Below, piece after piece: positions 1 through 16,492 of a DNA stretch of 64,000 nt; position 1 is the first letter of the stretch; each line of letters begins with the position of its first letter. The translations under genes were made by a program, and so were the position numbers. Source of the stretch: a phage; sequence record QB031383.1. The stretch is one strand, 5' to 3'. The notes under the pieces are model-generated. The model was given only the letters and a program-made list of their open reading frames with translations. It searched no databases and was not told where the DNA came from.

Positions 1-1
1 C

Positions 2-154
2 CCAGGTAAGCAACCTAATATGTGGTTGAAATCAGATAAAGAAGGGACCGAAGGAAAATTATGGTTGTATAAATGGGACGATTGGGTTAAAGTAGCTAAA
101 GAGTACGGTGTTTCACCATATATAAGAGATGCAGAAGAGGAGAATGAAGAATGA
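2..154 (+). CDS. 3' end of an upstream CDS running off the window start (hypothetical protein)
   Basis: Open frame from window edge to TGA at 152-154, overlapping the next ATG (ATGA); acidic C-terminus EEENEE. Confidence 0.4.
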   Translation, partial: PGKQPNMWLKSDKEGTEGKLWLYKWDDWVKVAKEYGVSPYIRDAEEENEE

Positions 155-1263
155 CAAGTCCATTTTTAAAAGCAGCTACTGGTGGTCAGAAGAAGCCTGA
201 AATGAGCGTATTTGCTGCAACAACAGATGCAAGTAAATCTGTATTCGCTCCAAGCGTGTTAGATGCCAGTCCTGTTTATGCACCAGCGGCACCGCAAGAA
301 GTTCCAGTTTTGCCTTCTATGACCCGACAAGAGATCGAAGAGATTGGGGCAGAGGCAGGAACAACCTTGCGTTCCTTGAATGCCGAGGTATTAAAACATC
401 AACGTAGTAATCAAGGCGATCAGATGAGTGAACGACTCACAGCTTTGATTAAACAGGCAAAACAACTTGATCCAAACTCTATTAAACAAAGCAAGGGTAT
501 TACTAAACTCATTAAAAAAGTTATGGGTATGAAAGAAGACCTGTTTGGGGAGTTTGATAATGTTAATAACCGTATTGAAGAGTTGGTAAAGAACCTTCAA
601 ATGGATATTCGCAAAGAAGAAGATTCCTTGGTATATCTTGAAAAGCTACATCAAGCTATTGGACAATATGCTGCAAGTTTGAACCGAGATATGCAGCTTC
701 TAACAGCAACCTATGAAAAAGAAGAACAAGCTTTGGCTGCTCTTCCAGAAGATGCAGTAGAACAGCGACAAGTGATCCGAGATACTTTGGATCTTCTGGA
801 GATTCGTATTGCAGATTTAAAAGCATTGCGCCTACTGTGTGTCCAAATGGGACCGCGTGTACAAGGTATGCAAAAAGTTTCTGCAAGCTTAATGCGATCT
901 GCGCGTAACATAGTAAATAATGTTATTCCTGCTTACTCTGCTAACTTCTCAATGTATATTGAGAGCTTACGTCAAATGAAAGCAGCAGAGACGCAGAATA
1001 ACGTTCTTGATGAATTTAACCTGGCAATTAAACTGGGTAGCGATCTTGCCACACAGAATCAGATCGAAGCAGCAGCACTGGCTAACCGTCAAGTGTTGGA
1101 TATTGAAACTCTGCGTCACGATCAGGAAAACTTGGTTAAGATGTTGGAAGAAACTAACCGCATCAATACGGAAGCCCGTGCTGCTCGTGTTGATTATATT
1201 AATGAAGTTCAATCTCTGGAAGACGGGATGGTAGCTGCTGTGAAACGAGGGCTTGGTAAATGA
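151..1263 (+). CDS. telA: TelA-like toxic anion resistance family protein
   Basis: 370 aa ORF, largely helical/coiled-coil composition resembling TelA/KlaA family; stop overlaps next start (ATGA); first gene of a Ter-like cluster. Confidence 0.55.
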   Translation: MTSPFLKAATGGQKKPEMSVFAATTDASKSVFAPSVLDASPVYAPAAPQEVPVLPSMTRQEIEEIGAEAGTTLRSLNAEVLKHQRSNQGDQMSERLTALIKQAKQLDPNSIKQSKGITKLIKKVMGMKEDLFGEFDNVNNRIEELVKNLQMDIRKEEDSLVYLEKLHQAIGQYAASLNRDMQLLTATYEKEEQALAALPEDAVEQRQVIRDTLDLLEIRIADLKALRLLCVQMGPRVQGMQKVSASLMRSARNIVNNVIPAYSANFSMYIESLRQMKAAETQNNVLDEFNLAIKLGSDLATQNQIEAAALANRQVLDIETLRHDQENLVKMLEETNRINTEARAARVDYINEVQSLEDGMVAAVKRGLGK

Positions 1264-1457
1264 GAATCCGTATCTATATAATTGATGAAGACATTGGTGT
1301 CCGTTATGATGACGAAAAACGATTCGCACCGATGGGAGGCATATATCCCCCAAGTGTTCTAGCAGTTTGTCGTGATTGTTATATTTATGAAGGTTGTCGT
1401 AACTTCCGTAAGTTCGAACTGCTTGCAGATATTGACTTCAATGAGGAGGAGGAGTAA
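1260..1457 (+). CDS. hypothetical protein (Cys-rich, acidic C-terminus)
   Basis: 65 aa ORF translationally coupled to the TelA-like gene (ATGA overlap); CxxC-containing. Confidence 0.45.
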   Translation: MRIRIYIIDEDIGVRYDDEKRFAPMGGIYPPSVLAVCRDCYIYEGCRNFRKFELLADIDFNEEEE

Positions 1458-1630
1458 TGAAAATATTACGAGTGAATATTGAAACTGCTTGGTGTGGATG
1501 CAATGAGGTTGTGGATATCGAAATTGAAGATGATATGTCTCAAGAGGATATAGAAGATCTTGCGCACGAAACCTTTCAGGATTATTGTAATTACGGGTTC
1601 CATATTTTAGAGGAGGAAGAAGATGTATAA
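1457..1630 (+). CDS. hypothetical small acidic protein
   Basis: 57 aa ORF not in the track (below 60 aa); ATG overlaps preceding stop (TAATG); ends in EEEEDV. Confidence 0.3.
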   Translation: MKILRVNIETAWCGCNEVVDIEIEDDMSQEDIEDLAHETFQDYCNYGFHILEEEEDV

Positions 1631-2021
1631 TCCAACAGGTATTCTTTTAAAACTTACAGTAACAGACCCTACTCTTTTCACCAAGTTAGCAAGTGGTGAA
1701 GTTTATGAAGTAATGAAAGATGATGACGGTTGGTGTTATCTTTGTGGCTACTTCCTCTGTGATGCAGAAGAGTTAGAATCCATTGTAACTAAAGGTTTTT
1801 ATGAAGAACCAGGGTTCCGTGTGGAAACTACGCAGAAACCTGATACCATTACGTTGACTCGACAAGAACTGATCACAATCATTGAAGATGCTTTTATTGA
1901 TGGCTGGAATACGCAAGATAATGACTGGGGTGGACCCGAAGCTTTTCTGGAACATCATAAAACTTATGGAGACTCTTGTGAAACCACTATAGCTCTTGAT
2001 AATCTGAAGGAGGGTTTGTAA
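1623..2021 (+). CDS. hypothetical protein
   Basis: 132 aa ORF, GGAGG RBS upstream, overlaps neighbours by a few nt as in a coupled operon. Confidence 0.5.
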   Translation: MYNPTGILLKLTVTDPTLFTKLASGEVYEVMKDDDGWCYLCGYFLCDAEELESIVTKGFYEEPGFRVETTQKPDTITLTRQELITIIEDAFIDGWNTQDNDWGGPEAFLEHHKTYGDSCETTIALDNLKEGL

Positions 2022-2584
2022 TGGGTTGTTTTAGCTTTTTGTGCAAAGAATCGGGCAAAGCTGCCCTTTCTACTTCTTTCGACGGATCACCTTGTTATCT
2101 CTTTCTTTTGAAGGACGGTGTTGTTATTGAAGAGATGTATGGCAACTATGATAGTTATGGTTGTGTTTTCTCTGGAAAGGAGGATGAAAACGGCGTTCGT
2201 GAACGGTTCGAATGGGCTATGGATTGGGGTAAGGTTTGTGATTTGATGCATTCCTCAAATCCAAGGGACGGTATCGCTATGGTGCTGGAAGAGTACTTTA
2301 CAGGTGAAATCCCTACAGAACAATCTGACGGAGATCCTAACCAAGGTTGGGGTGATGGTGAAGAAGATCCAGATTGTTTTTTCAGCACAGAAAAGAATAA
2401 GTTTAAACGTGTTGACAACCCTTATCACAAAGTGCATAATACTCTCATTGAAACAGAAGATGACAAGATGGAAATTGAAGAAGATGATCCTCTTGTAACA
2501 CTTCCTATAAGTGAGTTACAAAAGATCACTAAGGAAGCTTACGATTTGGGCTTCAAAATTGGTAGAGGAGGTATGCGTGTTTAG
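2021..2584 (+). CDS. hypothetical protein
   Basis: 187 aa ORF; GAAGGAGG RBS immediately upstream; no recognisable motifs. Confidence 0.5.
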   Translation: MGCFSFLCKESGKAALSTSFDGSPCYLFLLKDGVVIEEMYGNYDSYGCVFSGKEDENGVRERFEWAMDWGKVCDLMHSSNPRDGIAMVLEEYFTGEIPTEQSDGDPNQGWGDGEEDPDCFFSTEKNKFKRVDNPYHKVHNTLIETEDDKMEIEEDDPLVTLPISELQKITKEAYDLGFKIGRGGMRV

Positions 2585-2855
2585 ATTCAATATTCAAGAA
2601 GAAAAAAGTCAGGATTTACCTATTGCTTTCGAAGATCTTGACGTAGGGGCCACATTCATGTATTATGATGCCTATGAAGACGCAGGGTTGGATACCTACC
2701 GTAACTTGGTGTTCATTAAAAATTCCACAAACAGTGCGATTTGTATTAATGGATCACTAGCACAACGAGGCTATACTCATTGCATCCCACCAGATACAAA
2801 TATGGTGGAAGTAGATTTAGAAGTTACCAATATTACACTTAAGAAGGAGAAATAA
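2577..2855 (+). CDS. small protein, paralog A of a duplicated pair
   Basis: GTG start 7 nt after GGAGG; 92 aa; clear similarity to the 3877-4146 product (..DLDVG.TF.Y..A.DE.GLD.. / ..VE.LEVT.ITLK). Confidence 0.5.
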   Translation: MFRFNIQEEKSQDLPIAFEDLDVGATFMYYDAYEDAGLDTYRNLVFIKNSTNSAICINGSLAQRGYTHCIPPDTNMVEVDLEVTNITLKKEK

Positions 2856-2856
2856 T

Positions 2857-3651
2857 ATGTCCGAGAAAATCAGCCTGAAAAAACGTCAAGAAAACCTTGC
2901 TTTCTCTCTGAAAAAGAATAAGAACCTGAATGAAGGTAAGATTGTTCTTCGTGTAGCATGTGCTCTAGATATTTCTGGTAGTATGCATGGTCTATATTCT
3001 AGTGGGGTAGTGAGTGATTTTGTAGGTAAACTGCTTCCTTTTGGTATGCTGTTCGACGATAATCAACAAATTGATATGTGGGCCTTCAATACGAGTTCCC
3101 AAGAGCTTACTCCAGCAACAGCAGATGTTTACGATGACTATGTTGGTAAATGTATGCGTAATGTTCGTATCGGAGGTGGAACAAATTACGCCCCTGTAAT
3201 GGCGGATATCTACGATGAGTATTTTGGCACTGTTACTAAATATATTACCACTAAACAAGTGGTACAAGAGGAGGCTCCAAAGAAAGGCTTCTTTAATCGT
3301 CTGCTTGGTAAAACTGAAACAGTGTCTGTAGAGCGTGAAAAAGTTGTAGCTGTATCTGAACCAGGTGCTGACGTTACCCCTGGTGTTGTATTCTTCCAGA
3401 CGGATGGTGAGAATGGTGATCCTAGTGCTGTTCGTCGTCTTATCGAAGAGAATAAGAATAAACCTATTTATTGGTTCATGGTTGGCGTTGGTAATGAGAA
3501 GTTTGGCTTCCTGAAAGAACTGGCAAATGCTTATGATAATGTTGGTTTTATTGGCATTAAAGATTTAGACTTGACAGATTCAGAGCTTTATGACAAACTC
3601 TTATCTGAAGAGTTCGGAGAGTGGGTTGTTAAAGTAGGTGCTAAAAAATGA
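2857..3651 (+). CDS. vWA domain protein with TerD-like N-terminal start (TerF C-terminal-type vWA)
   Basis: MIDAS motifs present (DISGSM, GGGTNYAPVM, FFQTDGEN); N-terminus MSEKISLKK resembles the TerD-like gene at 4162. Confidence 0.6.
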   Translation: MSEKISLKKRQENLAFSLKKNKNLNEGKIVLRVACALDISGSMHGLYSSGVVSDFVGKLLPFGMLFDDNQQIDMWAFNTSSQELTPATADVYDDYVGKCMRNVRIGGGTNYAPVMADIYDEYFGTVTKYITTKQVVQEEAPKKGFFNRLLGKTETVSVEREKVVAVSEPGADVTPGVVFFQTDGENGDPSAVRRLIEENKNKPIYWFMVGVGNEKFGFLKELANAYDNVGFIGIKDLDLTDSELYDKLLSEEFGEWVVKVGAKK

Positions 3652-3896
3652 TCGACGAGCTTGCCTCTCAAGTCATAGAAAATTATTGGCGCGAGAGAGA
3701 AGCTTTCATTATGCGCAGTCTCAAAGAGTATTTCATTGGGACTGTGCGAATGGAAGATATTGTAAGTAGAGTAGAGATTCATGTATGGCCTGATTATGAA
3801 GAATGGGTTGACAAAGAAAATGAAAATGCTATAATTCTTCGTATATACAAACCGGAGATAACATTAGGAGGAAGAAGTGTTAAACTTCGAAATTGA
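3648..3896 (+). CDS. hypothetical protein
   Basis: 82 aa ORF, start overlaps upstream stop (ATGA). Confidence 0.45.
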   Translation: MIDELASQVIENYWREREAFIMRSLKEYFIGTVRMEDIVSRVEIHVWPDYEEWVDKENENAIILRIYKPEITLGGRSVKLRN

Positions 3897-4146
3897 TGAG
3901 CAAAAAGTAAATAAACGATGCCTTACCATTAAAGATTTGGATGTAGGAGATACTTTCGTCTATGAAAATGCATTTGACGAAAATGGTTTAGACCTTAGTG
4001 AAATCATTGTTTATTTAAAAGTAGATGATGGGGAAAATGATTATTCTGCTGTAGAACTAAACCATCATGCACAATTAGTATCAATCCAAAACACATCTAA
4101 GCTTTTGGAAGTAGAATTGACTGTAACTGGTATTACACTTAAATAA
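3877..4146 (+). CDS. small protein, paralog B of the duplicated pair
   Basis: GTG start after GGAGG; 89 aa; paralogous to 2577-2855. Confidence 0.5.
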   Translation: MLNFEIDEQKVNKRCLTIKDLDVGDTFVYENAFDENGLDLSEIIVYLKVDDGENDYSAVELNHHAQLVSIQNTSKLLEVELTVTGITLK

Positions 4147-4161
4147 TAGAGGAGACAAAAG

Positions 4162-4764
4162 ATGACTGATAAAATTTCCCTGAAAAAAGGCTCTAGCGAA
4201 AAAATTTCCCTGAAGAAAGTTGCTCCGGCTCTGAAAGAACTGCGCCTGGAATTCTCTTGGAAATCTGATTCTAAACTGGATCTGGATGTAAGTGCACTGG
4301 TTTGTCGTCACAATGCCGCTGGCAATCCTGAAATGCTGTCTGCACGTCATCTGGTTTGCTATGCTAACAAGTTTGATCCTGAACGTTCTACCTTCGCTGG
4401 TGACGATGTTCGTGATGGAACTGGCAGCATGGAGCAGATTGATATTACTCTGGCTAAAATCTCTCCTGATGCACAAGAGATTGCCTTTGTTCTGACCATT
4501 GATGATGATACAGGTCTGAAACGTTTTGGTCATGCTTCTGAAGGTATGCTTAAAATCTTCGACTCCGAGCGCAATGTGGAAATTCTGGATTTTGACTTCC
4601 TGGCTCCTGAAGTAGCTGGCAACACAATCTGCCACGTGGCTTCCTTGGTTCGTGAAGATGGGGAATGGAAGCTGAAAGCATATGGTGTAGGTAAAGCTGG
4701 TCTGGATATTTGTGATGTGGTGATGGCCTTCGGTGGTAAAAAAGAATGGTATGAATGTCCATAA
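4162..4764 (+). CDS. terD: TerD-domain stress response protein
   Basis: 200 aa; TerD-like features (N-terminal KISLKKG repeats, LDLDVSALV, GDD..DG acidic Ca-binding-type motifs); strong RBS GAGGAG. Confidence 0.65.
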   Translation: MTDKISLKKGSSEKISLKKVAPALKELRLEFSWKSDSKLDLDVSALVCRHNAAGNPEMLSARHLVCYANKFDPERSTFAGDDVRDGTGSMEQIDITLAKISPDAQEIAFVLTIDDDTGLKRFGHASEGMLKIFDSERNVEILDFDFLAPEVAGNTICHVASLVREDGEWKLKAYGVGKAGLDICDVVMAFGGKKEWYECP

Positions 4765-4782
4765 TAATTAACAAATGATTTT

Positions 4783-4806
4783 GAGGGGGAGAAATCCCCC
4801 TCTTGC
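4783..4806 (+). terminator. stem-loop GAGGGGGA-GAAA-TCCCCCTC after the TerD-like gene (weak U-tract)
   Basis: 8-bp GC-rich perfect stem read directly; T-tract downstream is short, so efficiency uncertain. Confidence 0.45.
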
Positions 4807-4831
4807 AATAAAGCCTCTATCGTGTTATACT
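4803..4831 (+). promoter_or_regulatory. sigma70-like promoter (TTGCAA-17-TATACT)
   Basis: -35 TTGCAA at 4803-4808, -10 TATACT at 4826-4831, upstream of the 4864 gene. Confidence 0.5.
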
Positions 4832-4863
4832 AGAAATTCGTTAACTTAAAAAGGAGGCAAAAT

Positions 4864-5385
4864 TTGCTGATAAAAAACTTTGTAACAGTTGCGTTACTAT
4901 CCTTAACTGCTTTTACATTTACACCTGTTGTGGCGAAAGCCGAAGCTGCAAACGTAAAAACCGCTAAAGTAGTTCACAAATGTACAAAGCAATATAATGA
5001 TAAAATTCTATTAGCTTGTGCAATTTACGCAGAAGGTCGAGGTCTGGGTAAAAAAGGAATGAATGCCGTTGGGAATGTGGTAATCAACAGACGAAATGAT
5101 ACCTACTTCCCTAACACAGTCAGAGGAGTCTTGTTCCAGAAAGGGCAATTCTCATATGCGAAAACTTTTAACGTAACAGAGAAAGATAAGTGGCAGGAAG
5201 CAAAAGCAATAGCGGAGCGTTTACTTTATTTAGAGAAACATTTTCCTGAATTGCGGTCTGTTTTAGATGTTACTAAAGGTGCCCTATACTTCAAGAAACG
5301 GAATATAAGGACAAACTGGGAACGTGATATGCGTCTTGTTTATCGAGATAAAGTGCATGGTTTCTATCTACCAAAGGGGAGTTAA
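4864..5385 (+). CDS. secreted cell wall hydrolase, SleB-like (Hydrolase_2 family); candidate endolysin
   Basis: TTG start after AAAGGAGG; N-terminal signal/SAR-like hydrophobic segment ending AKAEA; SleB-like motifs CAIYAEGRG, VVINRRND, VLFQKGQFSY. Confidence 0.6.
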   Translation: MLIKNFVTVALLSLTAFTFTPVVAKAEAANVKTAKVVHKCTKQYNDKILLACAIYAEGRGLGKKGMNAVGNVVINRRNDTYFPNTVRGVLFQKGQFSYAKTFNVTEKDKWQEAKAIAERLLYLEKHFPELRSVLDVTKGALYFKKRNIRTNWERDMRLVYRDKVHGFYLPKGS

Positions 5386-5386
5386 A

Positions 5387-5671
5387 ATGCAAGAAGATAA
5401 TACTGTTGTTGTAGCAAGTTACCTGGTTGTCGGTCTTACCGAAGAGGACGTATACTACACCCGTAAGCATTTGGAAGCATACGCTACTTTGTTTATGGAA
5501 GATGAAAAGGATGTAGATAAATATAGCATTGATATGATCAACGACAGTATTTATCCTTGTATGGTTCTTAAAGTAGATGCTGTGTTGTGGGAGCGTTTTG
5601 CAAGGACTCATGATGCTGTAGAATGCTCCGCAGTAATGTCTCAAAACAACATTTTAGGGGAGATTCATTGA
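5387..5671 (+). CDS. hypothetical protein
   Basis: ATG at 5387 preceded by AAGGGGAG; track ORF 5324-5671 trimmed to first start with an RBS. Confidence 0.45.
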   Translation: MQEDNTVVVASYLVVGLTEEDVYYTRKHLEAYATLFMEDEKDVDKYSIDMINDSIYPCMVLKVDAVLWERFARTHDAVECSAVMSQNNILGEIH

Positions 5672-5901
5672 TGGGAGAAGTCATTGAAGTCAATTTTCGC
5701 ACTAAACAGAAAGTGCAAAAATATGTCGTTATTAAAAACATTTGCGTTGTCTGCTTCAATACAGTAATATACGACTCACGACGCGGAGAAAACGAAAATG
5801 AACCTTACATTGAAATTTCTAAGAACAAAGGTCAATGTATTTGTAAGAACTGTGCAGTAGCTATTAAGGAGGTTGTAAATGAAAACGCTTGGGACCAATG
5901 A
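5671..5901 (+). CDS. hypothetical Zn-ribbon protein
   Basis: ATG at 5671 overlapping upstream stop; two CxxC pairs (CVVC, CICKNC). Confidence 0.4.
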   Translation: MGEVIEVNFRTKQKVQKYVVIKNICVVCFNTVIYDSRRGENENEPYIEISKNKGQCICKNCAVAIKEVVNENAWDQ

Positions 5902-6070
5902 AACTGGCGAAATCTCTCTTCAAGAAGTGACAAACGACAAGCTGATTAAACTACGGGATGTAGCTCGTGACCATCTCCAAGAATCTTTTAAAGAATATAT
6001 GGAAGCACGAGATCGTGTGATCCAGATTCAACAAGAAATGATTAAACGTGGGATTGTAGCTGACAGTTAA
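5879..6070 (+). CDS. hypothetical protein
   Basis: 63 aa ORF with GGAGG RBS. Confidence 0.4.
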   Translation: MKTLGTNETGEISLQEVTNDKLIKLRDVARDHLQESFKEYMEARDRVIQIQQEMIKRGIVADS

Positions 6071-6086
6071 TATAACGGAGGGGAGA

Positions 6087-6650
6087 ATGATTTATTATAT
6101 TACTCCCTATCTGACAGGAAATATCGGCAAGGCTATCAATGAAGCTATTGCCGTTCTTCCAGATGATAGTTGGGTGTGTTTAAGAGATACCGATACAATG
6201 TTCCTCCTACCTGATCAACCATCTATGCTTGAAGAGCTTGTTATGTCAAACCCGCCTTTTGATGTAATAGGTGCAACTTGTAACAGGTTAGGCAGTGGTT
6301 ATCAGCTTTTCTCTAACCAAATTAACGATGATCCAGATATTCTAAACCATATAGAATATGCTAAGATTGCAAGAGAATATCATAAAGTAAATGTTGAAGA
6401 AGTTCCTTTCGGAACACCTCTGGCAGGTTTCTTTTTGCTTTTTAGAAAATCATTGTGGAATGAAATTCCTTTCGAAGAAAAATCTATCCAATTCGACTTA
6501 ATTTTCTCTCGCGCTTTACATGAAAAAGGAAAGAGGTTAGGATTGATGCGGGGAATGTATCTGTTTCACATTTACAGATTAGGTCAAACAAATCCTCAAC
6601 GGTCTATACATCATTTATTACACTGTCATGATCACAGTAAAACTATTTAG
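6087..6650 (+). CDS. putative glycosyltransferase (GT-A-like)
   Basis: 187 aa; DxD-type motif in CLRDTDTMF; GGAGGGGAG RBS. Confidence 0.4.
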   Translation: MIYYITPYLTGNIGKAINEAIAVLPDDSWVCLRDTDTMFLLPDQPSMLEELVMSNPPFDVIGATCNRLGSGYQLFSNQINDDPDILNHIEYAKIAREYHKVNVEEVPFGTPLAGFFLLFRKSLWNEIPFEEKSIQFDLIFSRALHEKGKRLGLMRGMYLFHIYRLGQTNPQRSIHHLLHCHDHSKTI

Positions 6651-6658
6651 GAGAGAAA

Positions 6659-7342
6659 ATGGAAAATATTAAAATCGGAGTGGGTGTTATCACTGTAGGT
6701 GTCCGTCCGCTTAAAGACTACCTTGTAACAGATCCACGTGCAGATTTTCGAGTATTCAACGATCCAGATCGTAAAGGTGTAGCTTATGCCAGGAATGAAC
6801 TTATGCACCAGTTTTATGAAGAAGGTTATGATTATTGGTTTATTTTTGACGACGATTGCTACCCAGTCATGGAGGGATGGGAAACATATTTTGTAGATCA
6901 AGCTGTCTCTGGAGGATGGGATTTCTTTGGTATGCCGGAGTACTTCAAAGATAAAGTTGTTGGAAGCAAAGGAGAAGTTATTCTCTGGGAACTTGCAATG
7001 TGTCAATTTGCAATGTATTCTCGTGCCGTTGTTGAAAAGATGGGTTATTTCCGTCCTTACACTCACGGTTATGGTTTTGAAGATGCTGAATGGGGACACC
7101 GTTTACAAGCTGCTGGTTTGAATCATGGTATTCAGGCAACACCTTGTCCACTTCGTATCATGGCTTATATCCACCCAGACGATGTTTTTGGCAACAATCC
7201 TATGCCTTTTGCTAACCTGACAAAAGAAGAGAAAGAAGCTGCTATTGGGATTAACTGGGAAGAATATAAAGCATCTTTAGAGGATATTAAAAATGGGAAA
7301 ATCCGAATTTCCTATGAGGAGGCACTAGCACATGTCAAATAA
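6659..7342 (+). CDS. putative glycosyltransferase (GT-A fold, DXD motif)
   Basis: 227 aa; acidic DXD motif WFIFDDDCYP typical of nucleotide-sugar transferases. Confidence 0.5.
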   Translation: MENIKIGVGVITVGVRPLKDYLVTDPRADFRVFNDPDRKGVAYARNELMHQFYEEGYDYWFIFDDDCYPVMEGWETYFVDQAVSGGWDFFGMPEYFKDKVVGSKGEVILWELAMCQFAMYSRAVVEKMGYFRPYTHGYGFEDAEWGHRLQAAGLNHGIQATPCPLRIMAYIHPDDVFGNNPMPFANLTKEEKEAAIGINWEEYKASLEDIKNGKIRISYEEALAHVK

Positions 7343-8279
7343 AAAATGGTCTAAACTAAAAATTGATGCAAAACCTCACAGCGGTTGTGACTATCATCGT
7401 ATTGTTATACCATTTAACAACAATAATATTCAACCTAAGAAAGATGTTGTTGTGTTTAACCGTATCCACTCTAAAGGTGCAGAATACGTTTTATCTTTGA
7501 AACGCCAAGGTGTTAAGATTGTTGTAGACTTAGATGATTTTTACCAACTTAATCCAGAGCATTATTTGGCAAGTTTATACGAGTCAAACACTCATGCTAT
7601 TGTGGCTATGGTTAAGCTTGCTGATGTGGTTATTGTGACTACGGAATACTTGGCATATAAGATCCGTCACTTAAATAGGAATGTTGTTGTGATCCGAAAT
7701 GCACTTCCTTTTGATAGTGGACAATTCACTTTGTCAAATGATCGTTCATCCGGTACCCCTGTTGTATGGGCTGGCGGTGCTAGTCACGAACCCGATTTAC
7801 GACTAGTCTCTAATACTTTCGATGATGAACTTCTTACTATTGCGGGATATGAAGCATCGCAGAGCATCACGGGACAAGAGTGGATTAAGATTCGCAGAAA
7901 TTTACCAAATGCCAAATATAAAGCTGCTGTAAAAGATTTAGATAATTACATGAGTGTTTACGAAAGTCATGCTATTGCTATAGCTCCTTTGGTAGATAAT
8001 GATTTTAATAATTGCAAAAGTAATCTCAAAATCCTGGAAGCTGGGGCAAAAGGTATTCCGATTGTTTGTTCTAAGGTGTTACCTTATTTTAACCCTGTAG
8101 ATGCTCGTGCTGTTGCTTACGCAGAGAATAAAGCAGAATGGCATTACGAAATTGTTAAGCTTCTTCGCAATCCAAACTATCGGGAAGATCGTGGCTTGTT
8201 CTTGGCTGAACATGTTCGAACACATTATAATCTGGCAGATGCAAATGAGTTGCGACGCCAGGTTATTGAAAGTTTGTAG
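7332..8279 (+). CDS. glycosyltransferase-like protein, tandem paralog 1 (possible GT-B C-terminal motif)
   Basis: 315 aa; paralogous to 8287-9231 (CDYHRIVIPF / CDFHRVVLPY; SNLKILEAGAKGIPIVCS / SNLKILEAGAKGLPLICS). Confidence 0.45.
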   Translation: MSNKKWSKLKIDAKPHSGCDYHRIVIPFNNNNIQPKKDVVVFNRIHSKGAEYVLSLKRQGVKIVVDLDDFYQLNPEHYLASLYESNTHAIVAMVKLADVVIVTTEYLAYKIRHLNRNVVVIRNALPFDSGQFTLSNDRSSGTPVVWAGGASHEPDLRLVSNTFDDELLTIAGYEASQSITGQEWIKIRRNLPNAKYKAAVKDLDNYMSVYESHAIAIAPLVDNDFNNCKSNLKILEAGAKGIPIVCSKVLPYFNPVDARAVAYAENKAEWHYEIVKLLRNPNYREDRGLFLAEHVRTHYNLADANELRRQVIESL

Positions 8280-8286
8280 GTGAAGT

Positions 8287-9231
8287 ATGGGACAAATAAT
8301 TCTTGACAATCGTAACGGAATCAATTATAGTGTCTGCGATTTCCATAGGGTAGTGCTGCCTTACTCAAGGCAGTTCTCTTCACAACCTAAACACAACGTT
8401 TTCGTTTTTAACGGAGTGCCAACAAAAGGTAAAGAGGGCTTTTTAGCCCTTAAAAACCTAGGCTTTAAAATGGTTATGGATTTGGATGACTCTTTAGTTA
8501 TTCCAAAAGGACACATGTTAGAAGGTATTTTTGAATCAGGTATTCGTGAACATTTAAAATGGTTTTTAGAGCACAGTGATCTTGTTACAACTACGACACC
8601 TGCCTTGCAAGTTGAACTTTCACAATACAATGATAATGTGCACATAATCCCTAATGGACTTCCTTACGATGAAGGTCAATTTGTGTTGACCCGTGATCGC
8701 TACTCCAAAACTCCATTAGTCTGGGCTGGAAGTGAAACACATAAACAAGATTTGGCTATCTTGCCCGATTTTGGTAAAGATCTTACAATATGTGGTTTTC
8801 GTAGGGATTCTGAAGTTTTAAGTAGTCGTGAATGGTCTGTAATCAGGGAAAATGTAGCACCAACTTGTGTTTATGAAGGTGTAAGACCATATGCCAACTA
8901 CATGGAATCTTACGATGGTCATCAAATCAGTCTTGCGCCATTGATTGATAACGTGTTTAATAATGCAAAAAGCAATCTTAAAATTCTTGAGGCAGGTGCT
9001 AAGGGTTTACCTTTGATCTGTTCTCCTCGTGAGAATTATCATACACAAGAGTTTAAAGATCTGTTATTCTTTGCTGAAACACCTTCCGAGTGGAAAGATA
9101 TTACGGAATACTTATTAAGTGCTCCCGATGTTTGCATGGAGAAAGGATTAGCATTAGCTAAGTATGTCAGGACTCATTATCACATTGATGTGTTGAATGA
9201 GCGTCGTAGACTTTTATTTGAGGAGCTATAA
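8287..9231 (+). CDS. glycosyltransferase-like protein, tandem paralog 2
   Basis: 314 aa; same length and conserved blocks as 7332-8279. Confidence 0.45.
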   Translation: MGQIILDNRNGINYSVCDFHRVVLPYSRQFSSQPKHNVFVFNGVPTKGKEGFLALKNLGFKMVMDLDDSLVIPKGHMLEGIFESGIREHLKWFLEHSDLVTTTTPALQVELSQYNDNVHIIPNGLPYDEGQFVLTRDRYSKTPLVWAGSETHKQDLAILPDFGKDLTICGFRRDSEVLSSREWSVIRENVAPTCVYEGVRPYANYMESYDGHQISLAPLIDNVFNNAKSNLKILEAGAKGLPLICSPRENYHTQEFKDLLFFAETPSEWKDITEYLLSAPDVCMEKGLALAKYVRTHYHIDVLNERRRLLFEEL

Positions 9232-9509
9232 TGATTAACACTTTTGATTTTGAATACACCACTCGTAACGGGAAAGCTTTAGTCGTGGAGGTGGATTACT
9301 ATTATGAAGAGCCTAACCCGCTTTCTCGTGAAAGTGATTGGGATTACCACGGAGGGCTTTTAATTGACGGTATTCGTTTTTACGAAGGCTCTACAGAAGT
9401 TTTTGAAAAAGATTTAAATGTAACTGTAGCAGAAATTGCTTTCCAATTTAGAAAGCACATGGAAGAACTAGAAGCAGAATATATGATGGAGACTAACGAA
9501 CCATTTTAA
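9231..9509 (+). CDS. hypothetical protein
   Basis: 92 aa ORF, ATG overlaps upstream stop (TAATGA). Confidence 0.45.
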   Translation: MINTFDFEYTTRNGKALVVEVDYYYEEPNPLSRESDWDYHGGLLIDGIRFYEGSTEVFEKDLNVTVAEIAFQFRKHMEELEAEYMMETNEPF

Positions 9510-9521
9510 CAGGAGAACAAA

Positions 9522-11300
9522 GTGTCGCACATTATAACTAAATATGGATTTGATGTTGATCTTAGCAAGGAAGGGCATACAGGTTGTCCGCGCTGCATGA
9601 AAAATGGCAAGGATCGCTCTCGTAATAACCTGATGGTTTATGGATTAGATTCTAATGGAGAGCATAAAGGTGCTAAGTGCTTTGCGTGTGAATACACTAT
9701 TCCTAGCGTAGAATGGTTACGAGAAAATGGTGAAGTTTTAGAAGAAGAGGAGGAGATTGTGGGTTCGGAATTTAATAAACAGATTCATCGTAAAATTGTT
9801 CAAGAAACATCAACCAACCCACGTGGTTATCGAGGCATTAAAGAAAAAGTTTCATCTTTCTATGGTGTTCGTTATGAATACCGTCAGGAAGGGGATCAGA
9901 TGGTAGTAGAAAGTTGTTTATATCCAACTACCATCGGTAAAGAACTGGTTGGTTTTAAGCGTCGTATTCATCCTAAAGATTTCAGTAAACCTATTGGTCA
10001 AGTAGGTAAAGATGTAGATCTTTTTGGACAAATTCGTTTTGCAGACCGTTCTCATACTGTTGTAATTACAGGTGGTGAACACGATGCTCTGGCAGCTTAT
10101 CAGATGCTGTCTGAAAACTTGGACAACAAATATGAACTTCCAGCAGTAGTTAGTGGCACAACTGGTGAAACCAGTATGTATAAACAAGTTCAGGCACAAT
10201 ATCCTTTCTTTGAAAAATTTAAGAAGATTATTGTTTGCATGGACAATGACAAAGCGGGTAATGAGGCATTTGAAAATATTGTTAAGGTGCTGCCTCGTAA
10301 CAAAGTCTACCGTATGCAGATGGATCTTAAGGATGCTAATCAGTATCTGGAAGAAGGTCGTGCAAAAGATTTCGTAAAAGCTTTTTGGAGTGCTCGTCTA
10401 TACACCCCAGCAGGTGTTTATGCTTCTAATGTCTTGTATGAAGCTGCATTAGAATGCTTGGAATCCAAGATGATTACCTTGCCTCCTTTTATGCGTGTTG
10501 CTGCAAATATGCTGGGTGGTGGTTTAGTAGAGGAAGAGATTACAGTTATCCTGGCAAAGACCAGTATCGGTAAAACTTTGATGGTGAACGAGATCACCAA
10601 ACATATTATCGTTGCACACCCAGAACATACCCTCGGTATTCTGTCATTGGAAGCAACTTATAAGAAATATTCTCGTAACCTGTTGTCCTCTTTCCTGCAC
10701 ATTCCTCTGCACAGGAAAACACCGGAAGAGAAATTTCAAATCTTGGAAGAGAATAAAGAAAAAATCCTAGATTTTTACGAAAGAGAAGATGGATCACCAC
10801 GTTTTTATGTGTGTGATGATCGTGGAGCAGATGTGGAGTCTATCAAAGAAAAAGTTTTGGAGATGATCATCTATTTTGGAGTAACAATTCTTGTTATCGA
10901 CCCTTATTCTGATTTGCTTTCTGGTATGGATGTTCAAGCCCAGGAAGAGTTAGCAACATGGTTGAAGCGCATCATGAAAGAGTATGCTATAACTATTATC
11001 GTCATCTCACACGTTAAGAAATCGGCTAATGGTGGCAATGAACACTTAACAGAGGACGATGCAATGGGTAGTAGTTTCTTGGCTAAAGGTGCTGGTATTA
11101 CCTTGGCTTTGGAACGAGATAAAGCCGCTGAAGACCCTGTAGAACGAAATACAACTCATTGCTTTATCCTAAAAAACCGTGAGTTCTCGGAAACTGGTCC
11201 GGCAGGGCAGTTTTACTATGACATTAGAACTGCAACTCTGCATGACAAAGAACAGTATTTCAACAATCCTGCTAATTTGCCTACGGATAGCAACTATTAA
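9522..11300 (+). CDS. bifunctional DNA primase/helicase (T7 gp4-like)
   Basis: GTG start after GGAGAA; N-terminal Zn-ribbon (CPRCM...CFACEY), TOPRIM-like middle, C-terminal DnaB/RecA-like ATPase with Walker A AKTSIGKT. Confidence 0.8.
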   Translation: MSHIITKYGFDVDLSKEGHTGCPRCMKNGKDRSRNNLMVYGLDSNGEHKGAKCFACEYTIPSVEWLRENGEVLEEEEEIVGSEFNKQIHRKIVQETSTNPRGYRGIKEKVSSFYGVRYEYRQEGDQMVVESCLYPTTIGKELVGFKRRIHPKDFSKPIGQVGKDVDLFGQIRFADRSHTVVITGGEHDALAAYQMLSENLDNKYELPAVVSGTTGETSMYKQVQAQYPFFEKFKKIIVCMDNDKAGNEAFENIVKVLPRNKVYRMQMDLKDANQYLEEGRAKDFVKAFWSARLYTPAGVYASNVLYEAALECLESKMITLPPFMRVAANMLGGGLVEEEITVILAKTSIGKTLMVNEITKHIIVAHPEHTLGILSLEATYKKYSRNLLSSFLHIPLHRKTPEEKFQILEENKEKILDFYEREDGSPRFYVCDDRGADVESIKEKVLEMIIYFGVTILVIDPYSDLLSGMDVQAQEELATWLKRIMKEYAITIIVISHVKKSANGGNEHLTEDDAMGSSFLAKGAGITLALERDKAAEDPVERNTTHCFILKNREFSETGPAGQFYYDIRTATLHDKEQYFNNPANLPTDSNY

Positions 11301-11320
11301 GGGCTTCGGCCCTTTTATTA
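11299..11320 (+). terminator. rho-independent terminator GGGC-TTCG-GCCC + TTTTATT
   Basis: GC stem with TTCG tetraloop followed by T-run just after the primase-helicase stop. Confidence 0.7.
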
Positions 11321-11330
11321 AAAATACCTG

Positions 11331-11359
11331 TTGACAACTTTACGGAAGGGACTTATACT
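11331..11359 (+). promoter_or_regulatory. sigma70-like promoter (TTGACA-17-TATACT)
   Basis: -35 TTGACA at 11331-11336, -10 TATACT at 11354-11359; followed by RBS and ATG at 11393. Confidence 0.65.
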
Positions 11360-11392
11360 TGTCTCATCAACCAAACAAGAGGAGAAGTAAAA

Positions 11393-11824
11393 ATGCGTAT
11401 GACAATCGATCTGAATGCAAAAATTAAAGCTGCTGGTGCTCTGGGTGCTGGTGTTATTAAACACAAACAAGCGTTGGCATTTGCCATCCCACATATGATT
11501 GTTGAGGATCATCCTGAAGAGTTTGCTGTAAAAGTTGTTGAGAATAATGTCTCTGTTATTGAACATCTTCCAACTGGACGTTCTTACCGTGTTGTTTCTT
11601 CTAAAGGTTTCCGTTTCGATGTAAGCCCTTCTTTCACAAAAGGTGCTGGTCGTAGTAAAGTGGGTATTCTTTCTTACAAATATTATATCGATAAAGTTGC
11701 AGATGGTGTTGCATTCTGTCGTGTAAGTGAAGGTAAAGTAGATATCATCTTTAAAAATACCAAAAACATGGTTATTTCTGACGATGGTAAAGTTGACCTC
11801 ACTATTGAGTTCGCTAACAACTAA
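11393..11824 (+). CDS. hypothetical protein (own promoter, strong RBS)
   Basis: 143 aa ORF, AGAGGAGAAG RBS. Confidence 0.5.
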   Translation: MRMTIDLNAKIKAAGALGAGVIKHKQALAFAIPHMIVEDHPEEFAVKVVENNVSVIEHLPTGRSYRVVSSKGFRFDVSPSFTKGAGRSKVGILSYKYYIDKVADGVAFCRVSEGKVDIIFKNTKNMVISDDGKVDLTIEFANN

Positions 11825-11833
11825 GGAGGACTA

Positions 11834-12628
11834 TTGAGCAAGTTGAACACACTTGATCAATATTACACTAACCCCGCTTATGCGGGGTTCTTATGTGATA
11901 AGATCAAAGAAATTTTTGGAGAGGAAGCTAACTACGTAGAACCATCTGCGGGAGAAGGGGCTTTCTCTTCTTGTTTTAAAAACATAACTTCTTTTGATAT
12001 TGACCCTAAGTTTGAAGATTGTATTGAAGCAGATTTTTTAGCTCAATCTGTTGAGTCTGTTGGTAGTGTAACTGCTTTTGTCGGTAATCCTCCATTTGGA
12101 AAAAATGCTAGTCTTGCCATTAAATTCTTTAACCATTGTGCTGAAATGCTGGATAACGAAGGTGGTATTTGTTTTATCTTGCCTCGCACATTTCAAAAAA
12201 TCTTTTTTGCACACAAACTAAATCCCCATATGCATCTTTTTTACGAAGAAGAATGTCCAAAAGGATCTTTTATTCTTCATGGAGAACCTTGGGATGTTCC
12301 TTGTGTATTCCAGATATGGATTAAACGCAACGAGAAGCGTTCTCCCGTTGTTTTAGGAGAGAATCGACTATTCGTATTAGGTAACAGTAAAGACTACGAT
12401 ATAGCCGTTAGGAGAGCGGGAGCAAGTGCAGGTAAAGTGTTATCAGAAGAAGATTCTTTATCTGAAGCATCTACCTATTTTTTAAAAGCCTTGACTTCTG
12501 ATCTTAAAACGCGTATCATTGAGGCTTACCCGTTACTTAAAGCTGAAGCTAGTAAAACTGCGGGAGTAAGAAGTTTAAGTTTAAAAGAACTTCAGTGGGT
12601 TCTGGAGAACATTAGAAAGGAGGAATAG
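11834..12628 (+). CDS. DNA methyltransferase (probable N6-adenine class; motif I before motif IV)
   Basis: TTG start after AGGAGGA; SAM-binding motif I EPSAGEGAF and catalytic motif IV NPPFG. Confidence 0.6.
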   Translation: MSKLNTLDQYYTNPAYAGFLCDKIKEIFGEEANYVEPSAGEGAFSSCFKNITSFDIDPKFEDCIEADFLAQSVESVGSVTAFVGNPPFGKNASLAIKFFNHCAEMLDNEGGICFILPRTFQKIFFAHKLNPHMHLFYEEECPKGSFILHGEPWDVPCVFQIWIKRNEKRSPVVLGENRLFVLGNSKDYDIAVRRAGASAGKVLSEEDSLSEASTYFLKALTSDLKTRIIEAYPLLKAEASKTAGVRSLSLKELQWVLENIRKEE

Positions 12629-15225
12629 TGAGTAAGTTTACATGGGATATTGAAGCAAACGGATTGTTGAATAATGACACTATCGATTATTTAGCTAGTC
12701 CTTATCGTCTCAAAGACACATTTCAAATGCACTGTATTGTCTTAGAGAACCATGAAACAGGAGAAATAGTAGCTTTCCACGATGGCCCTAAATACATCTT
12801 TGATGGGCGTCCTTATGAAGAGTCAGATGGTAAATACACATATGTTCTTAAAGAGTATGTGGCGCAAGATTACACACATTTTCAACTAAAAGATTTCCCA
12901 GACTTTATTAATCATGAAGGTTATTTTAAAGATAAGCCTGAATATCTGGTTGAAATGGCTGTGGCTCACAACGGTATCAACTATGACTGGTTGGCTACAA
13001 AACTGTTTTATGGCTTAGATTACAGTGTTAAATATAATACGTGGGGCAAAAATAAGGTAAAACTTATTGACTCCTTGATTTTGAGTAAAGTGTTAAACCC
13101 AGATCGAAAGATTGAAGGCAAATCAGGACATAGCTTGGCAGCACTTTCTCGAAAGGCAGGGGGTGATGTAAAAATAGATTTCCGTAAAGAGATTCCAGAA
13201 GAAGATCGATTTAAGACTTTTGCTGCTGATATGCTTTATTACTGTATCTATGACAACAAAGCCAATACGAGCGTATATAATTACCTTATGGAAGAATGGG
13301 GTGATTATGATAAATGGGAAGGTCCATTTGAACTTGAACAACGTGTAGCAGACATTATTACACGCCAGGAACACCGTGGGTTTGCTTTTAACATGAAGCA
13401 AGCAGAAGAGAACCTTGCTTTTTTGGATGCAGAAATGGAGCGTCTTCGTTTACTCGTTGAGCCTATTTTGCCACCTAAACCAGCAACAAAAGGTTATCTT
13501 AAGGCTTTTATTCCACCTAAGTTGCAAATTAAAAAGAACTTAGAGCCAACTAACCATATGATCAATTTTGCTAAGAAACATGATGGTCATTTGGAAGAGA
13601 GGGATGGCGATTGGTGGTTAGTTATGTTGGGGAAAGAGTGGAAACTGCCAGTTGCAGCAGATGAGCCTCTATGTGATCCTAACATTCCTGCAACATTGAA
13701 CGATACAACCCATATTAAAAACTGGCTTGTAGGATTAGGTTGGGTACCGTCTGAATATAAAGATAAAGACTTGACTCTTAAATCTGGCACCAAGATTAAA
13801 AAGAGCGAGGAAGAACTTCAGAAAGGTATTCGAGCTTACGTTGAGCAAACTCTATCTTCTAATTTTTGTCAGGATCGTTGTGATCATCTGGAGTGCACAC
13901 CGGAAACCTTGGAAAGGAAGATTCAAGAGCGTATAGCAAAAGGTAAAGGTCGCGGTCTTAAAGTATTGACTAACCCGTGTTTTACCAAAGGTCAGGAAAA
14001 AGAAATTTGTCCTAACCTGCAAGCTTTGGGTGAGAAGTTTCCTTATGCTACACAGATTGTAGAATACTTAACGTATAAGCATCGTAGGAACTCTATTTTA
14101 GGTGGCGGTGCTGATTGGGAAGAAGATGAAGAAGATCAAGAATACGATAAAGGTTTCTTAGCCGCAGTAAGGGCTGATGGGCGTATTCCTACCCCAGCCG
14201 CTACATGTGATGCTGCAACCTCTCGTATGAAGCATAGATCTGTAGCTAATATTCCTCGTGTCACATCTTTGTTTGGATGGGAGATGCGTAACTTGTTTGG
14301 TGTAGAGGTTCCTAAATACTTCCAGATCGGCTACGACTTCGACTCTTTGGAAGCAAAAATTGAATCACACTACTGTTGGCGGTACGAGCCGGAGCCACAC
14401 GAATATTGTAACGCTCTGTTGTTAGAGAAACCTAACGATGTTCACACAATGATGGCAAAACGTATCACTGAAACTATTGGACGTAAATTTGAACGTAGTC
14501 CTGCTAAATCTGTTAAGTATGGTATTACCTATGGTGCACAAGCCGACAAGGTTGCTAAAACAATTGGTAGCGATAAGTTTACAGGTCAATTGGTGTTTGA
14601 TGCTTTCTGGGAAGCTGCATTCCCATTGGCGCGTCTTAAAGAACGTTTAAACGATTTTTGGGTTAAGACTGGTAAACAATATGTTTTGGGTATTGACGGT
14701 CGTAAGGTTCCTACTCGTTCTGCTCACGCGATTCTTAACTCTCTGTTCCAAAGTGGTGGGGTTATCTGTGCTAAACGTGCAATGGTTATTTATGACGACA
14801 TGATCGAAGAAGAAGGACTAAGTGTTGACTTCTTTAAAGATGACTGGAAGAATAAAGATTTCGTGCAACAAATGATTGCATATCACGATGAAGCCCAGCT
14901 TGAAGTTTCTCGTAACCTTGTAGAATTTAAATGGTTTTCACCTGAATCATTAGGTTGGAAGAAAGTAGACGATCCTGAAGAACAAAAGAAAATTGATAAA
15001 GAATGCCTTGCTAAAGTCGAAGAATGGAAGCATAATAAGGAAAAAGAGACAGGGCAAATTTGGGCTAACATTCATGAATCTCCCAAAGGTGGATGGTTTA
15101 CAGCCTATAGTCGGGCAGGTGAACTTGCTGCTTTAGCTGTTACTAAGGCTGGAGAATTTTACAATCTTAACGTTCAGCTTACTGCCGGATATGATGTGGG
15201 TAATTCCTGGGCCACATGTCACTAA
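12628..15225 (+). CDS. DNA polymerase, family A, with N-terminal 3'-5' exonuclease
   Basis: GTG start; Exo I motif WDIEANG; Pol I-type motifs: motif B-like KSVKYGITYGAQ, motif C AYHDEAQLEV. Confidence 0.85.
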   Translation: MSKFTWDIEANGLLNNDTIDYLASPYRLKDTFQMHCIVLENHETGEIVAFHDGPKYIFDGRPYEESDGKYTYVLKEYVAQDYTHFQLKDFPDFINHEGYFKDKPEYLVEMAVAHNGINYDWLATKLFYGLDYSVKYNTWGKNKVKLIDSLILSKVLNPDRKIEGKSGHSLAALSRKAGGDVKIDFRKEIPEEDRFKTFAADMLYYCIYDNKANTSVYNYLMEEWGDYDKWEGPFELEQRVADIITRQEHRGFAFNMKQAEENLAFLDAEMERLRLLVEPILPPKPATKGYLKAFIPPKLQIKKNLEPTNHMINFAKKHDGHLEERDGDWWLVMLGKEWKLPVAADEPLCDPNIPATLNDTTHIKNWLVGLGWVPSEYKDKDLTLKSGTKIKKSEEELQKGIRAYVEQTLSSNFCQDRCDHLECTPETLERKIQERIAKGKGRGLKVLTNPCFTKGQEKEICPNLQALGEKFPYATQIVEYLTYKHRRNSILGGGADWEEDEEDQEYDKGFLAAVRADGRIPTPAATCDAATSRMKHRSVANIPRVTSLFGWEMRNLFGVEVPKYFQIGYDFDSLEAKIESHYCWRYEPEPHEYCNALLLEKPNDVHTMMAKRITETIGRKFERSPAKSVKYGITYGAQADKVAKTIGSDKFTGQLVFDAFWEAAFPLARLKERLNDFWVKTGKQYVLGIDGRKVPTRSAHAILNSLFQSGGVICAKRAMVIYDDMIEEEGLSVDFFKDDWKNKDFVQQMIAYHDEAQLEVSRNLVEFKWFSPESLGWKKVDDPEEQKKIDKECLAKVEEWKHNKEKETGQIWANIHESPKGGWFTAYSRAGELAALAVTKAGEFYNLNVQLTAGYDVGNSWATCH

Positions 15226-15242
15226 TTAACTCATTGTTTTAT

Positions 15243-15263
15243 AAGGGGCTTCTGCCCCTTTAT
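15243..15263 (+). terminator. stem-loop AGGGGC-TTCT-GCCCCT after the DNA polymerase gene
   Basis: 6-bp GC stem followed by TTTAT; directly downstream of the stop. Confidence 0.5.
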
Positions 15264-15273
15264 AGGAGGAGAT

Positions 15274-15632: not shown

Positions 15633-15642
15633 GGAGAAAACA

Positions 15643-16447: not shown

Positions 16448-16454
16448 TTAAAGC

Positions 16455-16484
16455 TTGACAATATTAAACATTTTATGATAGGAT
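16455..16484 (+). promoter_or_regulatory. promoter-like element (TTGACA, -10-like TAGGAT) upstream of the 16493 gene
   Basis: TTGACA at 16455-16460; TATGA/TAGGAT block resembles the -10 region of the tRNA-array promoter motif. Confidence 0.4.
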
Positions 16485-16492
16485 AGCATTCA

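Follow-up and report, generated by a model that had tools for sequence, protein, structure and literature searches.

Bacterial Ter systems resist phages, pore-forming colicins and membrane-active compounds, and the mode of action of the Ter and TelA systems has been elusive for decades. Gene clusters of the same families have also been described in phages (PMC7824862, PMC8386662, PMC9796965). Iyer, Anantharaman, Krishnan, Burroughs and Aravind (2021) described phage Ter systems in Acinetobacter phage ME3, in Caulobacter jumbo phages and in "certain other related smaller tailed phages" (PMC7824862, section 3.4.10), and proposed superinfection exclusion as their role (PMC7824862). The subject here is a set of Ter genes on the plus strand at positions 151-4764 of a 64,000-nucleotide stretch of phage DNA (sequence record QB031383.1), referred to below as the window. 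Judging by its domain content, the region belongs to the Ter-system core, with TelA, TerD and a TerF-type vWA protein in the window and TerC upstream of it in near-identical genomes, and the identity of these genes is near certain. Lytic phages that carry a reduced core of TelA, vWA, TerD and TerC would provide a simple genetic system in which the Ter mechanism could be tested.

That such genes occur in this phage is already known, since Phapecoctavirus records carry annotations for them and Ter modules of phages have a literature of their own. The present analysis adds that the system reaches past the window to TerC, a PRTase_3 phosphoribosyltransferase, a HAD-like protein and a Macro-domain protein, and that only two of the small open reading frames (ORFs) lying among the Ter genes, ORF6 and the C-terminal module of ORF4, are plausible accessories. 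It also suggests that TerD keeps only the first of its two calcium sites (the call on the second being provisional), and that the phage-type vWA protein carries a conserved motif resembling one in MinD, which predicts membrane tethering.

Genes of the Ter core and their setting

By nucleotide comparison, the window is part of the genome of a Phapecoctavirus (subfamily Stephanstirmvirinae), a lytic phAPEC8-like Escherichia coli myovirus of about 150 kb. Its first 6 kb match 132 phage records, 65 of which (phAPEC8, vB_Ec-G1, PNJ1809-36, ESCO37 and tuntematon among them) give at least 80% query coverage at 95-99.4% identity. Identity to phAPEC8 is about 99%; phage vB_Ec-G1 is 99.3% identical with full coverage, and the region is 99% identical in Shigella phage SF1-1. 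In GenBank records of the genus, the three core genes are labelled TelA-like or tellurite resistance, VWA domain protein, and TerD, general stress or stress protein, respectively; TerC is annotated in phAPEC8 itself.

The interval 151-4764 consists of ten plus-strand ORFs (Table 1), which overlap by 1-20 nt or are separated by gaps of at most 15 nt, and there are no credible minus-strand genes beneath them. The initial annotation had counted eleven coupled genes. The tight packing is evident; what was taken for an eleventh gene is the 3' remnant of an upstream SprT-like gene that the window truncates. The full SprT gene of SF1-1 (locus 5606-6154; Pfam SprT-like, 8.7e-9) ends at what corresponds to window position 154, and the remnant has a tblastn match to the SprT homolog of 05F01, a Klebsiella phage only distantly related to the window within the Stephanstirmvirinae.

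Table 1. Coordinates of genes, motifs and candidate signals at the start of the window
Feature	Position	Strand	Basis or remark
SprT-like metallopeptidase gene, 3' end	1..154	+	truncated by window start; 4-nt overlap with TelA start
TelA-family protein, 370 aa	151..1263	+	Pfam TelA PF05816; TelA domain residues 59-361
ORF2, 65 aa	1260..1457	+	phrog_24000; Phapecoctavirus only among genomes compared
ORF3, 57 aa, small, acidic, DUF7167-like	1457..1630	+	general phage family, no Ter link
ORF4, 132 aa	1623..2021	+	phrog_14200 covers residues 67-132 only
ORF5, 187 aa	2021..2584	+	N-terminal ~135 aa form a widespread, strongly conserved phage family
ORF6, 92 aa, GTG start	2577..2855	+	first phrog_11278 copy, 4.8e-50
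Stand-alone vWA-TerF-like protein, 264 aa	2857..3651	+	Pfam PF10138
Putative metal-ion-dependent adhesion site (MIDAS)	D38-x-S40-x-S42, nt 2968-2982; T109, nt 3181-3183; D183, nt 3403-3405	+	motif reading
KKGFFNRLLGK, amphipathic motif, vWA residues 142-152	3280..3312	+	resemblance to E. coli MinD membrane-targeting sequence
ORF8, 82 aa	3648..3896	+	phrog_22387; between vWA and TerD
Sigma-70 consensus promoter-like site (TTGACA, 16 nt, TGcTATAAT)	3808..3835	+	12/12 matches, extended -10
ORF9, 89 aa	3877..4146	+	second, divergent phrog_11278 copy, 7e-45
TerD-domain protein, 200 aa	4162..4764	+	Pfam TerD PF02342
GC-rich 8-bp hairpin (GAGGGGGA/UCCCCCUC)	4783..4802	+	19 nt past TerD stop
Promoter-like site	4803..4831	+	directly 3' of the hairpin
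SleB/CwlJ-type cell-wall hydrolase, not a Ter family	4864..5385	+	Pfam Hydrolase_2, 1.3e-17

The three domain assignments on which the initial annotation was built are all upheld, with scores far over the curated Pfam cut-offs. TelA matches its profile at E 3.2e-33 (115.7 bits against a cut-off of 30) over positions 13-327 of 332, that is, nearly full-length, and falls in the PHROGs family phrog_5890, "tellurite resistance", at 1.5e-139. Relatives were found by tblastn in 223 phage records. The N-terminal tail of the protein (residues 1-58, nt 151-325) is variable and of low complexity, with repeated DAS-x-(S/P)-V-(F/Y)-AP units; a P-x-Y-A-P motif in this tail is common to phage TelA proteins of unrelated lineages and may be a short linear interaction motif. 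TerD matches at 3.2e-28 (98.9 bits against 25.3), and among the window's TelA, vWA and TerD proteins it is the only one with solved relatives detectable by sequence; comparison of TelA and vWA with PDB sequences gave zero matches.

The vWA protein (E 1.6e-37, 130.1 bits against 29.4) had been credited with a complete MIDAS set, and its sequence agrees with this. The strings DISGS (residues 38-42), GGGTNYAP (106-113) and QTDGEN (181-186) are all present. Across 24 diverse homologs, four of the site residues (D38, S42, T109 and D183) never vary in the alignment and the fifth, S40, is conserved in at least 90%, so the putative metal site is under selection. The stretch from the MIDAS Thr109 to Asp183 is 77 residues long in this protein and 46-83 in most phage-type homologs, compared with about 40 in bacterial TerD-vWA fusions. 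It is here, inside an otherwise variable insert, that the MinD-like motif lies. The pattern G-phi-phi-x-x-[LFMI]-phi-G is found in 44 of 62 vWA homologs, whereas the fused TerF proteins of bacteria lack it. In E. coli, MinD is targeted to the membrane by the sequence KGFLKRLFGG (PMC5471200), and the hydrophobic moments of the phage and MinD segments are 0.24 and 0.27, respectively. From this resemblance the vWA protein is predicted to bind the membrane peripherally, which would fit a proposal that TelA and TerF-type vWA proteins act beneath the membrane (PMC7824862). The vB_Ec-G1 copy of the vWA gene (locus 9857-10651, equivalent to window 2857-3651) is labelled "RNA-binding protein" in that closest GenBank record, probably in error.

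TerD binds Ca2+, and the site residues are those given in PMC8779313. When the phage protein is aligned to Klebsiella TerD (2KXT; 1.5e-15, 60 bits), all six positions of site Ca1 are kept (40, 41, 42, 78, 79 and 89 becoming D40, L41, D42, D81, D82 and E91), whereas site Ca2 is partly lost, D88 being replaced by M90 and G82 by R84. The phage TerD thus appears to keep one of the two Ca2+ sites. The call on Ca2 is provisional, because the loop alignment holds a one-residue gap.

The remainder of the system lies upstream. In vB_Ec-G1 and SF1-1, the same-strand block extends about 17 kb 5' of TelA, to a divergent intergenic region. In it, NrdD and NrdG are followed by two small ORFs, a HAD-like hydrolase, a PRTase_3/ComF-like protein, Macro, a small membrane protein, TerC, four further ORFs, SprT and then TelA. 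TerC (PF03741, 3e-40), which is outside the window, is about 2.2 kb 5' of TelA in SF1-1 and is also present in vB_Ec-G1 and in Justusliebigvirus muut. The PRTase_3 gene of SF1-1 (a ComF-like phosphoribosyltransferase; PF15610, 2.2e-41) is likewise outside the window, and the Macro-domain protein upstream in SF1-1 has a Pfam match of 7.3e-5. The HAD-like gene scores below its Pfam cut-off (PF00702, 0.0012; 19.7 bits against 26.4) and owes its label of "hydrolase" to phrog_14393. On the 3' side, the Ter genes are followed by genes for glycosyltransferases, a primase/helicase and a DNA polymerase. With TerC, PRTase_3, HAD and Macro upstream, the system is larger than the window, and its genes, spread over about 10 kb, sit mid-block among genes for nucleotide metabolism and replication. 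The compact cluster at the front of an early region that had been described earlier was therefore an artefact of the window edge. No Pfam match to ATPgrasp_Ter, C-C_Bond_Lyase, TRSP, StiP/PRTase_1 or TerB was found in the 10 window and 17 upstream ORFs. The extended biosynthetic arm of Ter systems thus appears to be present in part, with PRTase_3 found and the ATP-grasp protein, the lyase and TerB absent.

Relation to other Ter loci and the small ORFs

In its component list (TelA, a TerF-type vWA protein, TerD and TerC, along with PRTase and HAD proteins of "signal biosynthesis") and in its carriage by a large virulent tailed phage, the locus agrees with the "relatively complete" phage version of Iyer et al. 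(PMC7824862). It differs from their jumbo-phage systems in the smaller genome, in the interruption of the Ter genes by unrelated or genus-restricted small ORFs, and in having two further features, a Macro protein and a duplication of the phrog_11278 gene. In Klebsiella, phage phiKp34 (PMC8386662), and in Pseudomonas, phages phiPsa374 and phiPsa315 (PMC9796965) similarly combine terC, a terF-type vWA gene, terD and telA in a lytic phage. Their clusters are contiguous, however, with TerC between vWA and TerD rather than about 2.2 kb upstream of TelA, and their proteins are only 20-25% identical to those described here.

Bacterial Ter loci (terZABCDEF, as on the IncHI2 plasmid R478 and in E. coli O157) share with the phage TelA, TerD, TerC, a vWA-TerF-like protein and a Ter-associated PRTase. 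The phage lacks the TerB, TerZ, TerA and TerE paralogs, and has one TerD rather than five or six. Its vWA protein stands alone, unlike bacterial TerF, which is fused to TerD, and has a longer insert with the MinD-like motif. Extended bacterial loci were reportedly treated by Anantharaman et al. in 2012; compared with these, the phage has no ATPgrasp_Ter, C-C_Bond_Lyase, StiP or TRSP, and its phosphoribosyltransferase is of the PRTase_3 type, not PRTase_1 or PRTase_2. One bacterial Ter locus, reached through weaker matches to the vWA protein, carries a C-C lyase, StiP, PRTase_2+TRSP, TerC, five stand-alone TerD proteins, a fused TerD-vWA, ATPgrasp_Ter and TelA; of the families sought and missed in the phage, it lacks TerB alone. 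Assignment to the classical terZABCDEF operon was rejected on the Pfam results, which give a single TerD-domain gene, no TerB and an unfused vWA. The TerY-P triad (a TerY vWA protein with a PP2C phosphatase and a Ser/Thr kinase), which resembles the locus in having a Ter-associated vWA protein, was rejected as well, on zero PADLOC matches for the ten window proteins and zero kinase or PP2C matches in Pfam. Scans of the ten proteins with PADLOC and NCBIfam gave nothing meaningful, and the locus is therefore not assigned to TerY-P or any other defence system in those catalogues.

The window proteins were mapped by tblastn onto the matching regions of muut, 05F01, phiPsa315 and Caulobacter phage CcrSC. 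In two sister genera, identities are 79% and 41% for TelA, 67% and 60% for vWA, and 81% and 49% for TerD. What is kept in place across the subfamily is TelA, the ORF4 C-terminus, one phrog_11278 gene, vWA, TerD and the SleB-type hydrolase; a DUF475/TerC-like protein is encoded upstream in 05F01. That the module has been kept while TelA diverged to 41% within the subfamily implies that lytic phages have been under selection to retain it. In phages of other groups the core genes lie together without a break, reading TelA-vWA-TerC-TerD in CcrSC and TelA-x-vWA-TerC-TerD in phiPsa315 (Pfam). The four-gene core of TelA, vWA, TerC and TerD thus recurs in the unrelated lineages Stephanstirmvirinae, Otagovirus (phiPsa315) and Caulobacter phage CcrSC.

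Where did the phage genes come from? The nearest relatives of the vWA protein are almost all metagenomic sequences, many of them 120-150 kb and phage-like, and the closest named bacterial relative, from Neobacillus vireti (38% identity), is within a prophage. With such relatives, and with TerD reaching only 60 bits against enterobacterial TerD, the phage Ter module is an old, phage-adapted lineage rather than a recent capture of a host ter island. The alternative, that the phage captured a tellurite-resistance cassette from a host and carries its genes as passengers of no use in lytic growth, is suggested by database labels such as moron, auxiliary and "tellurite resistance". It is very improbable given that the genes have stayed intact and in the same order throughout a subfamily in which protein identity has fallen to 41-60%, that the nearest vWA relatives are other phage contigs rather than host ter operons, that TerD scores so low against its Klebsiella counterpart, and that lytic phages of unrelated lineages carry the same core.

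In the Neobacillus prophage, the order is TerD-vWA-TerC without TelA, followed by Prs-like and NAMPT genes. Ter cores beside genes for salvage of nicotinamide adenine dinucleotide (NAD), either Prs with NAMPT or NadM, were observed in phiPsa315 (locus 726-5318), the Neobacillus prophage (locus 7404-11928) and CcrSC (locus 18549-19026, the gene being cut at the locus end). A Macro protein beside NAMPT in phiPsa315 is 42% identical to that of Phapecoctavirus. This adjacency may reflect a functional link or mere shared placement in accessory regions.

Small ORFs among the Ter genes (1260-2584 and 3648-3896) had been put forward as possible undescribed components of the system. This idea holds weakly for ORF6 and the C-terminal module of ORF4, to which it is limited because those alone keep their place across the subfamily, and it fails for ORF2, ORF3, ORF5, ORF8 and ORF9. 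ORF6 was originally listed from 2511, but its true start is read as the GTG at 2577, which is preceded by the ribosome-binding site GAGGAGG. The gene is immediately 5' of vWA in all three Stephanstirmvirinae genera examined, muut and 05F01 being syntenic. Its family, phrog_11278, has only seven homolog clusters, with Escherichia phages as the named sources. A fold search was ruled out because the AlphaFold2 model of ORF6, built on a 7-sequence alignment, was too poor (mean predicted local distance difference test score, pLDDT, 48). The last ~65 residues of ORF4 are kept directly 3' of TelA across the Stephanstirmvirinae, with 61% identity in 05F01 and 47% in muut. Its N-terminal half (1623-1820), on the other hand, is a 195-bp presence/absence polymorphism among Phapecoctaviruses: the protein has 132 residues in the window and in vB_Ec-G1, whereas SF1-1 has the 67-residue C-terminal module alone. 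Phage ZCKP1 and others match the 6-kb query as two pieces with 96% coverage, which fits the same 195-bp deletion.

Most of the other small ORFs appear to be unrelated or genus-restricted genes outside the machine. Counterparts of ORF2, ORF3, ORF8 and ORF9 were not found by tblastn in the Ter clusters of the four mapped phages. ORF2 and ORF8 have zero Pfam matches, and ORF8 is, like ORF2, seen in Phapecoctavirus only among the genomes compared. ORF3 matches DUF7167 slightly below the cut-off (7.5e-5, 23.2 bits against 24.4) and phrog_1997 at 6.7e-26. ORF9 is 33-37% identical to ORF6 in alignments; the phrog_11278 duplication is found in Phapecoctavirus only among the genomes compared, sister genera having a single copy, and in muut and 05F01 TerD directly follows vWA without ORF8 and ORF9 between them. 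The ORF5 family has 314 homologs, and the only counterpart among the four mapped phages is that of Justusliebigvirus. In marine phage contigs, members of the family sit in replication modules without Ter genes. ORF5 is therefore considered an independent gene, and was rejected as a Ter component.

Possible roles of the module during infection

What might a lytic phage gain from a Ter module? The role proposed here, tentatively and at somewhat less than even chances, is that of a metal-dependent, membrane-linked module of the envelope that would exclude superinfecting phages or maintain the membrane. Going by gene order, the Ter genes would be transcribed with those for nucleotide metabolism and replication, ahead of the late genes. 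TerC, from what is known of its family, would insert in the inner membrane, while TelA, the vWA protein (through its MIDAS and MinD-like motif) and TerD would assemble at the cytoplasmic face in a divalent-cation-dependent manner. Such an assembly might keep the membrane of the infected cell intact and energised, and exclude superinfecting phages, phage DNA or pore-formers until programmed lysis. In bacteria, TerC is required for tolerance of polymyxin B and cetylpyridinium chloride (PMC9933665). Taken as a whole, gene identity and role together, this best explanation may be given an even chance of being right.

Several points weigh against the proposed role. A literature search found no experiment on any phage Ter gene, those of phAPEC8 included, and one phage paper calls Ter function during infection unknown (PMC9796965). 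Only gene order speaks for the timing of expression, the MinD-like motif shows a resemblance and has a modest hydrophobic moment, and the Ca2 site of TerD is degraded. TerC and the biosynthetic genes are outside the window and known from near-identical genomes only, while the TerB, TerZ, TerA, Ter ATP-grasp and C-C lyase components that full bacterial loci possess are absent. None of the ten proteins is matched by the PADLOC defence models.

The initial annotation had suggested host takeover or anti-defence. In an anti-defence role, the module would shield the infected cell from abortive-infection effectors that permeabilise or depolarise the inner membrane. This is unlikely, though it is the strongest of the alternatives. 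It would make sense of the resistance of bacterial Ter systems to pore-forming colicins and of the tolerance of membrane-active agents that TerC confers (PMC9933665). NAD-salvage genes such as Prs and NAMPT belong, more generally, to the known means of counter-defence. They adjoin the Ter core in phiPsa315 and the Neobacillus prophage, and the 42% identical Macro protein is beside NAMPT in the former. Neither NAMPT nor Prs is found in the window or its sequenced flanks, however, and their adjacency elsewhere in accessory regions may be coincidence. Direct evidence for anti-defence is absent, as are matches to known anti-defence families.

A second alternative, metal handling, is less likely again. 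Here TerC would export Mn2+, Zn2+ or Ca2+ under regulation by TerD, vWA and TelA, and the purpose would be to tune metal levels for phage enzymes or to metal-load a secreted one. The TerC family has indeed been tied to manganese export and zinc resistance (PMC8779313, PMC12054061), TerD binds Ca2+ (PMC8779313), and the MIDAS is a metal site. A signal-peptide-bearing cell-wall hydrolase gene, which could supply a secreted enzyme, is 3' of the Ter cluster in three genera. To our knowledge, SleB/CwlJ-type hydrolases have no known need for metal, which counts against this explanation. A search of 20 kb of vB_Ec-G1 at E values up to 1 found no Rfam family at all, and so no Mn riboswitch before the phage terC, where bacterial terC genes commonly have one. 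Moreover, Klebsiella TerC is described as dispensable for metal-stress resistance (PMC9933665).

A bolder form of the membrane-protection idea is more doubtful than either of these. It holds that phage Ter is a distinct, self-sufficient variant, in which a vWA protein tethered to the inner membrane by the MinD-like motif of its phage-specific insert would act with TelA, TerD and TerC to neutralise membrane-permeabilising abortive-infection effectors or rival phages, while PRTase_3, HAD and Macro would make or destroy a nucleotide-derived signal. If true, this would add a novel class to the devices with which phages counter defence or exclude rivals, and would give a first handle on the Ter mechanism.

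It is more improbable still that the module controls the timing of lysis, sensing the state of the membrane or superinfection and delaying or licensing the release of the adjacent secreted hydrolase. The order of Ter cluster then hydrolase is kept in Phapecoctavirus, Justusliebigvirus and 05F01, and the hydrolase N-terminus resembles a signal peptide or signal anchor. On the other hand, a hairpin and a separate promoter-like site part TerD from the hydrolase gene, and the Ter cores of phiPsa315 and CcrSC do not adjoin a lysin.

Candidate signals and neighbouring genes

The hairpin past TerD is probably the 3' boundary of the unit. The RNA fold of 4755-4870 has an energy of -29.4 kcal/mol (z -3.35), and the hairpin together with the promoter-like site that follows suggests a boundary ahead of the hydrolase gene. 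Termination at 4783-4802 is only presumed, because a clear U-tract is missing. The site at 3808-3835 is inside ORF8, 5' of ORF9 and TerD and within the ORF8-ORF9 insertion. It is the sole perfect sigma-70 consensus in the window; at least one such site was obtained in 8 of 100 shuffles, and for that reason it is considered a lead only.

The hydrolase gene has a TTG start and encodes a signal-peptide-like N-terminus, MLIKNFVTVALLSLTAFTFTPVVAKA/EA (…PVVAKA/EA). It directly follows TerD in Phapecoctavirus and 05F01, while in muut there is one gene between them. The gene sits in the replication-gene block and not in a lysis cassette.

Just 3' of the Ter and hydrolase genes, four glycosyltransferase genes lie in a row at 6087-9231, the last two being paralogs (315 and 314 aa); they may serve in modification of DNA or of the cell envelope. 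According to GC skew, genes are on the plus strand from 1 to 18000 and on the minus strand from about 18000 to 60000. Ten tRNA genes (two Met, and one each for Ile, Pro, Gln, Gly, Thr, Asn, Ser and Arg) are clustered on the minus strand at 56472-58395.

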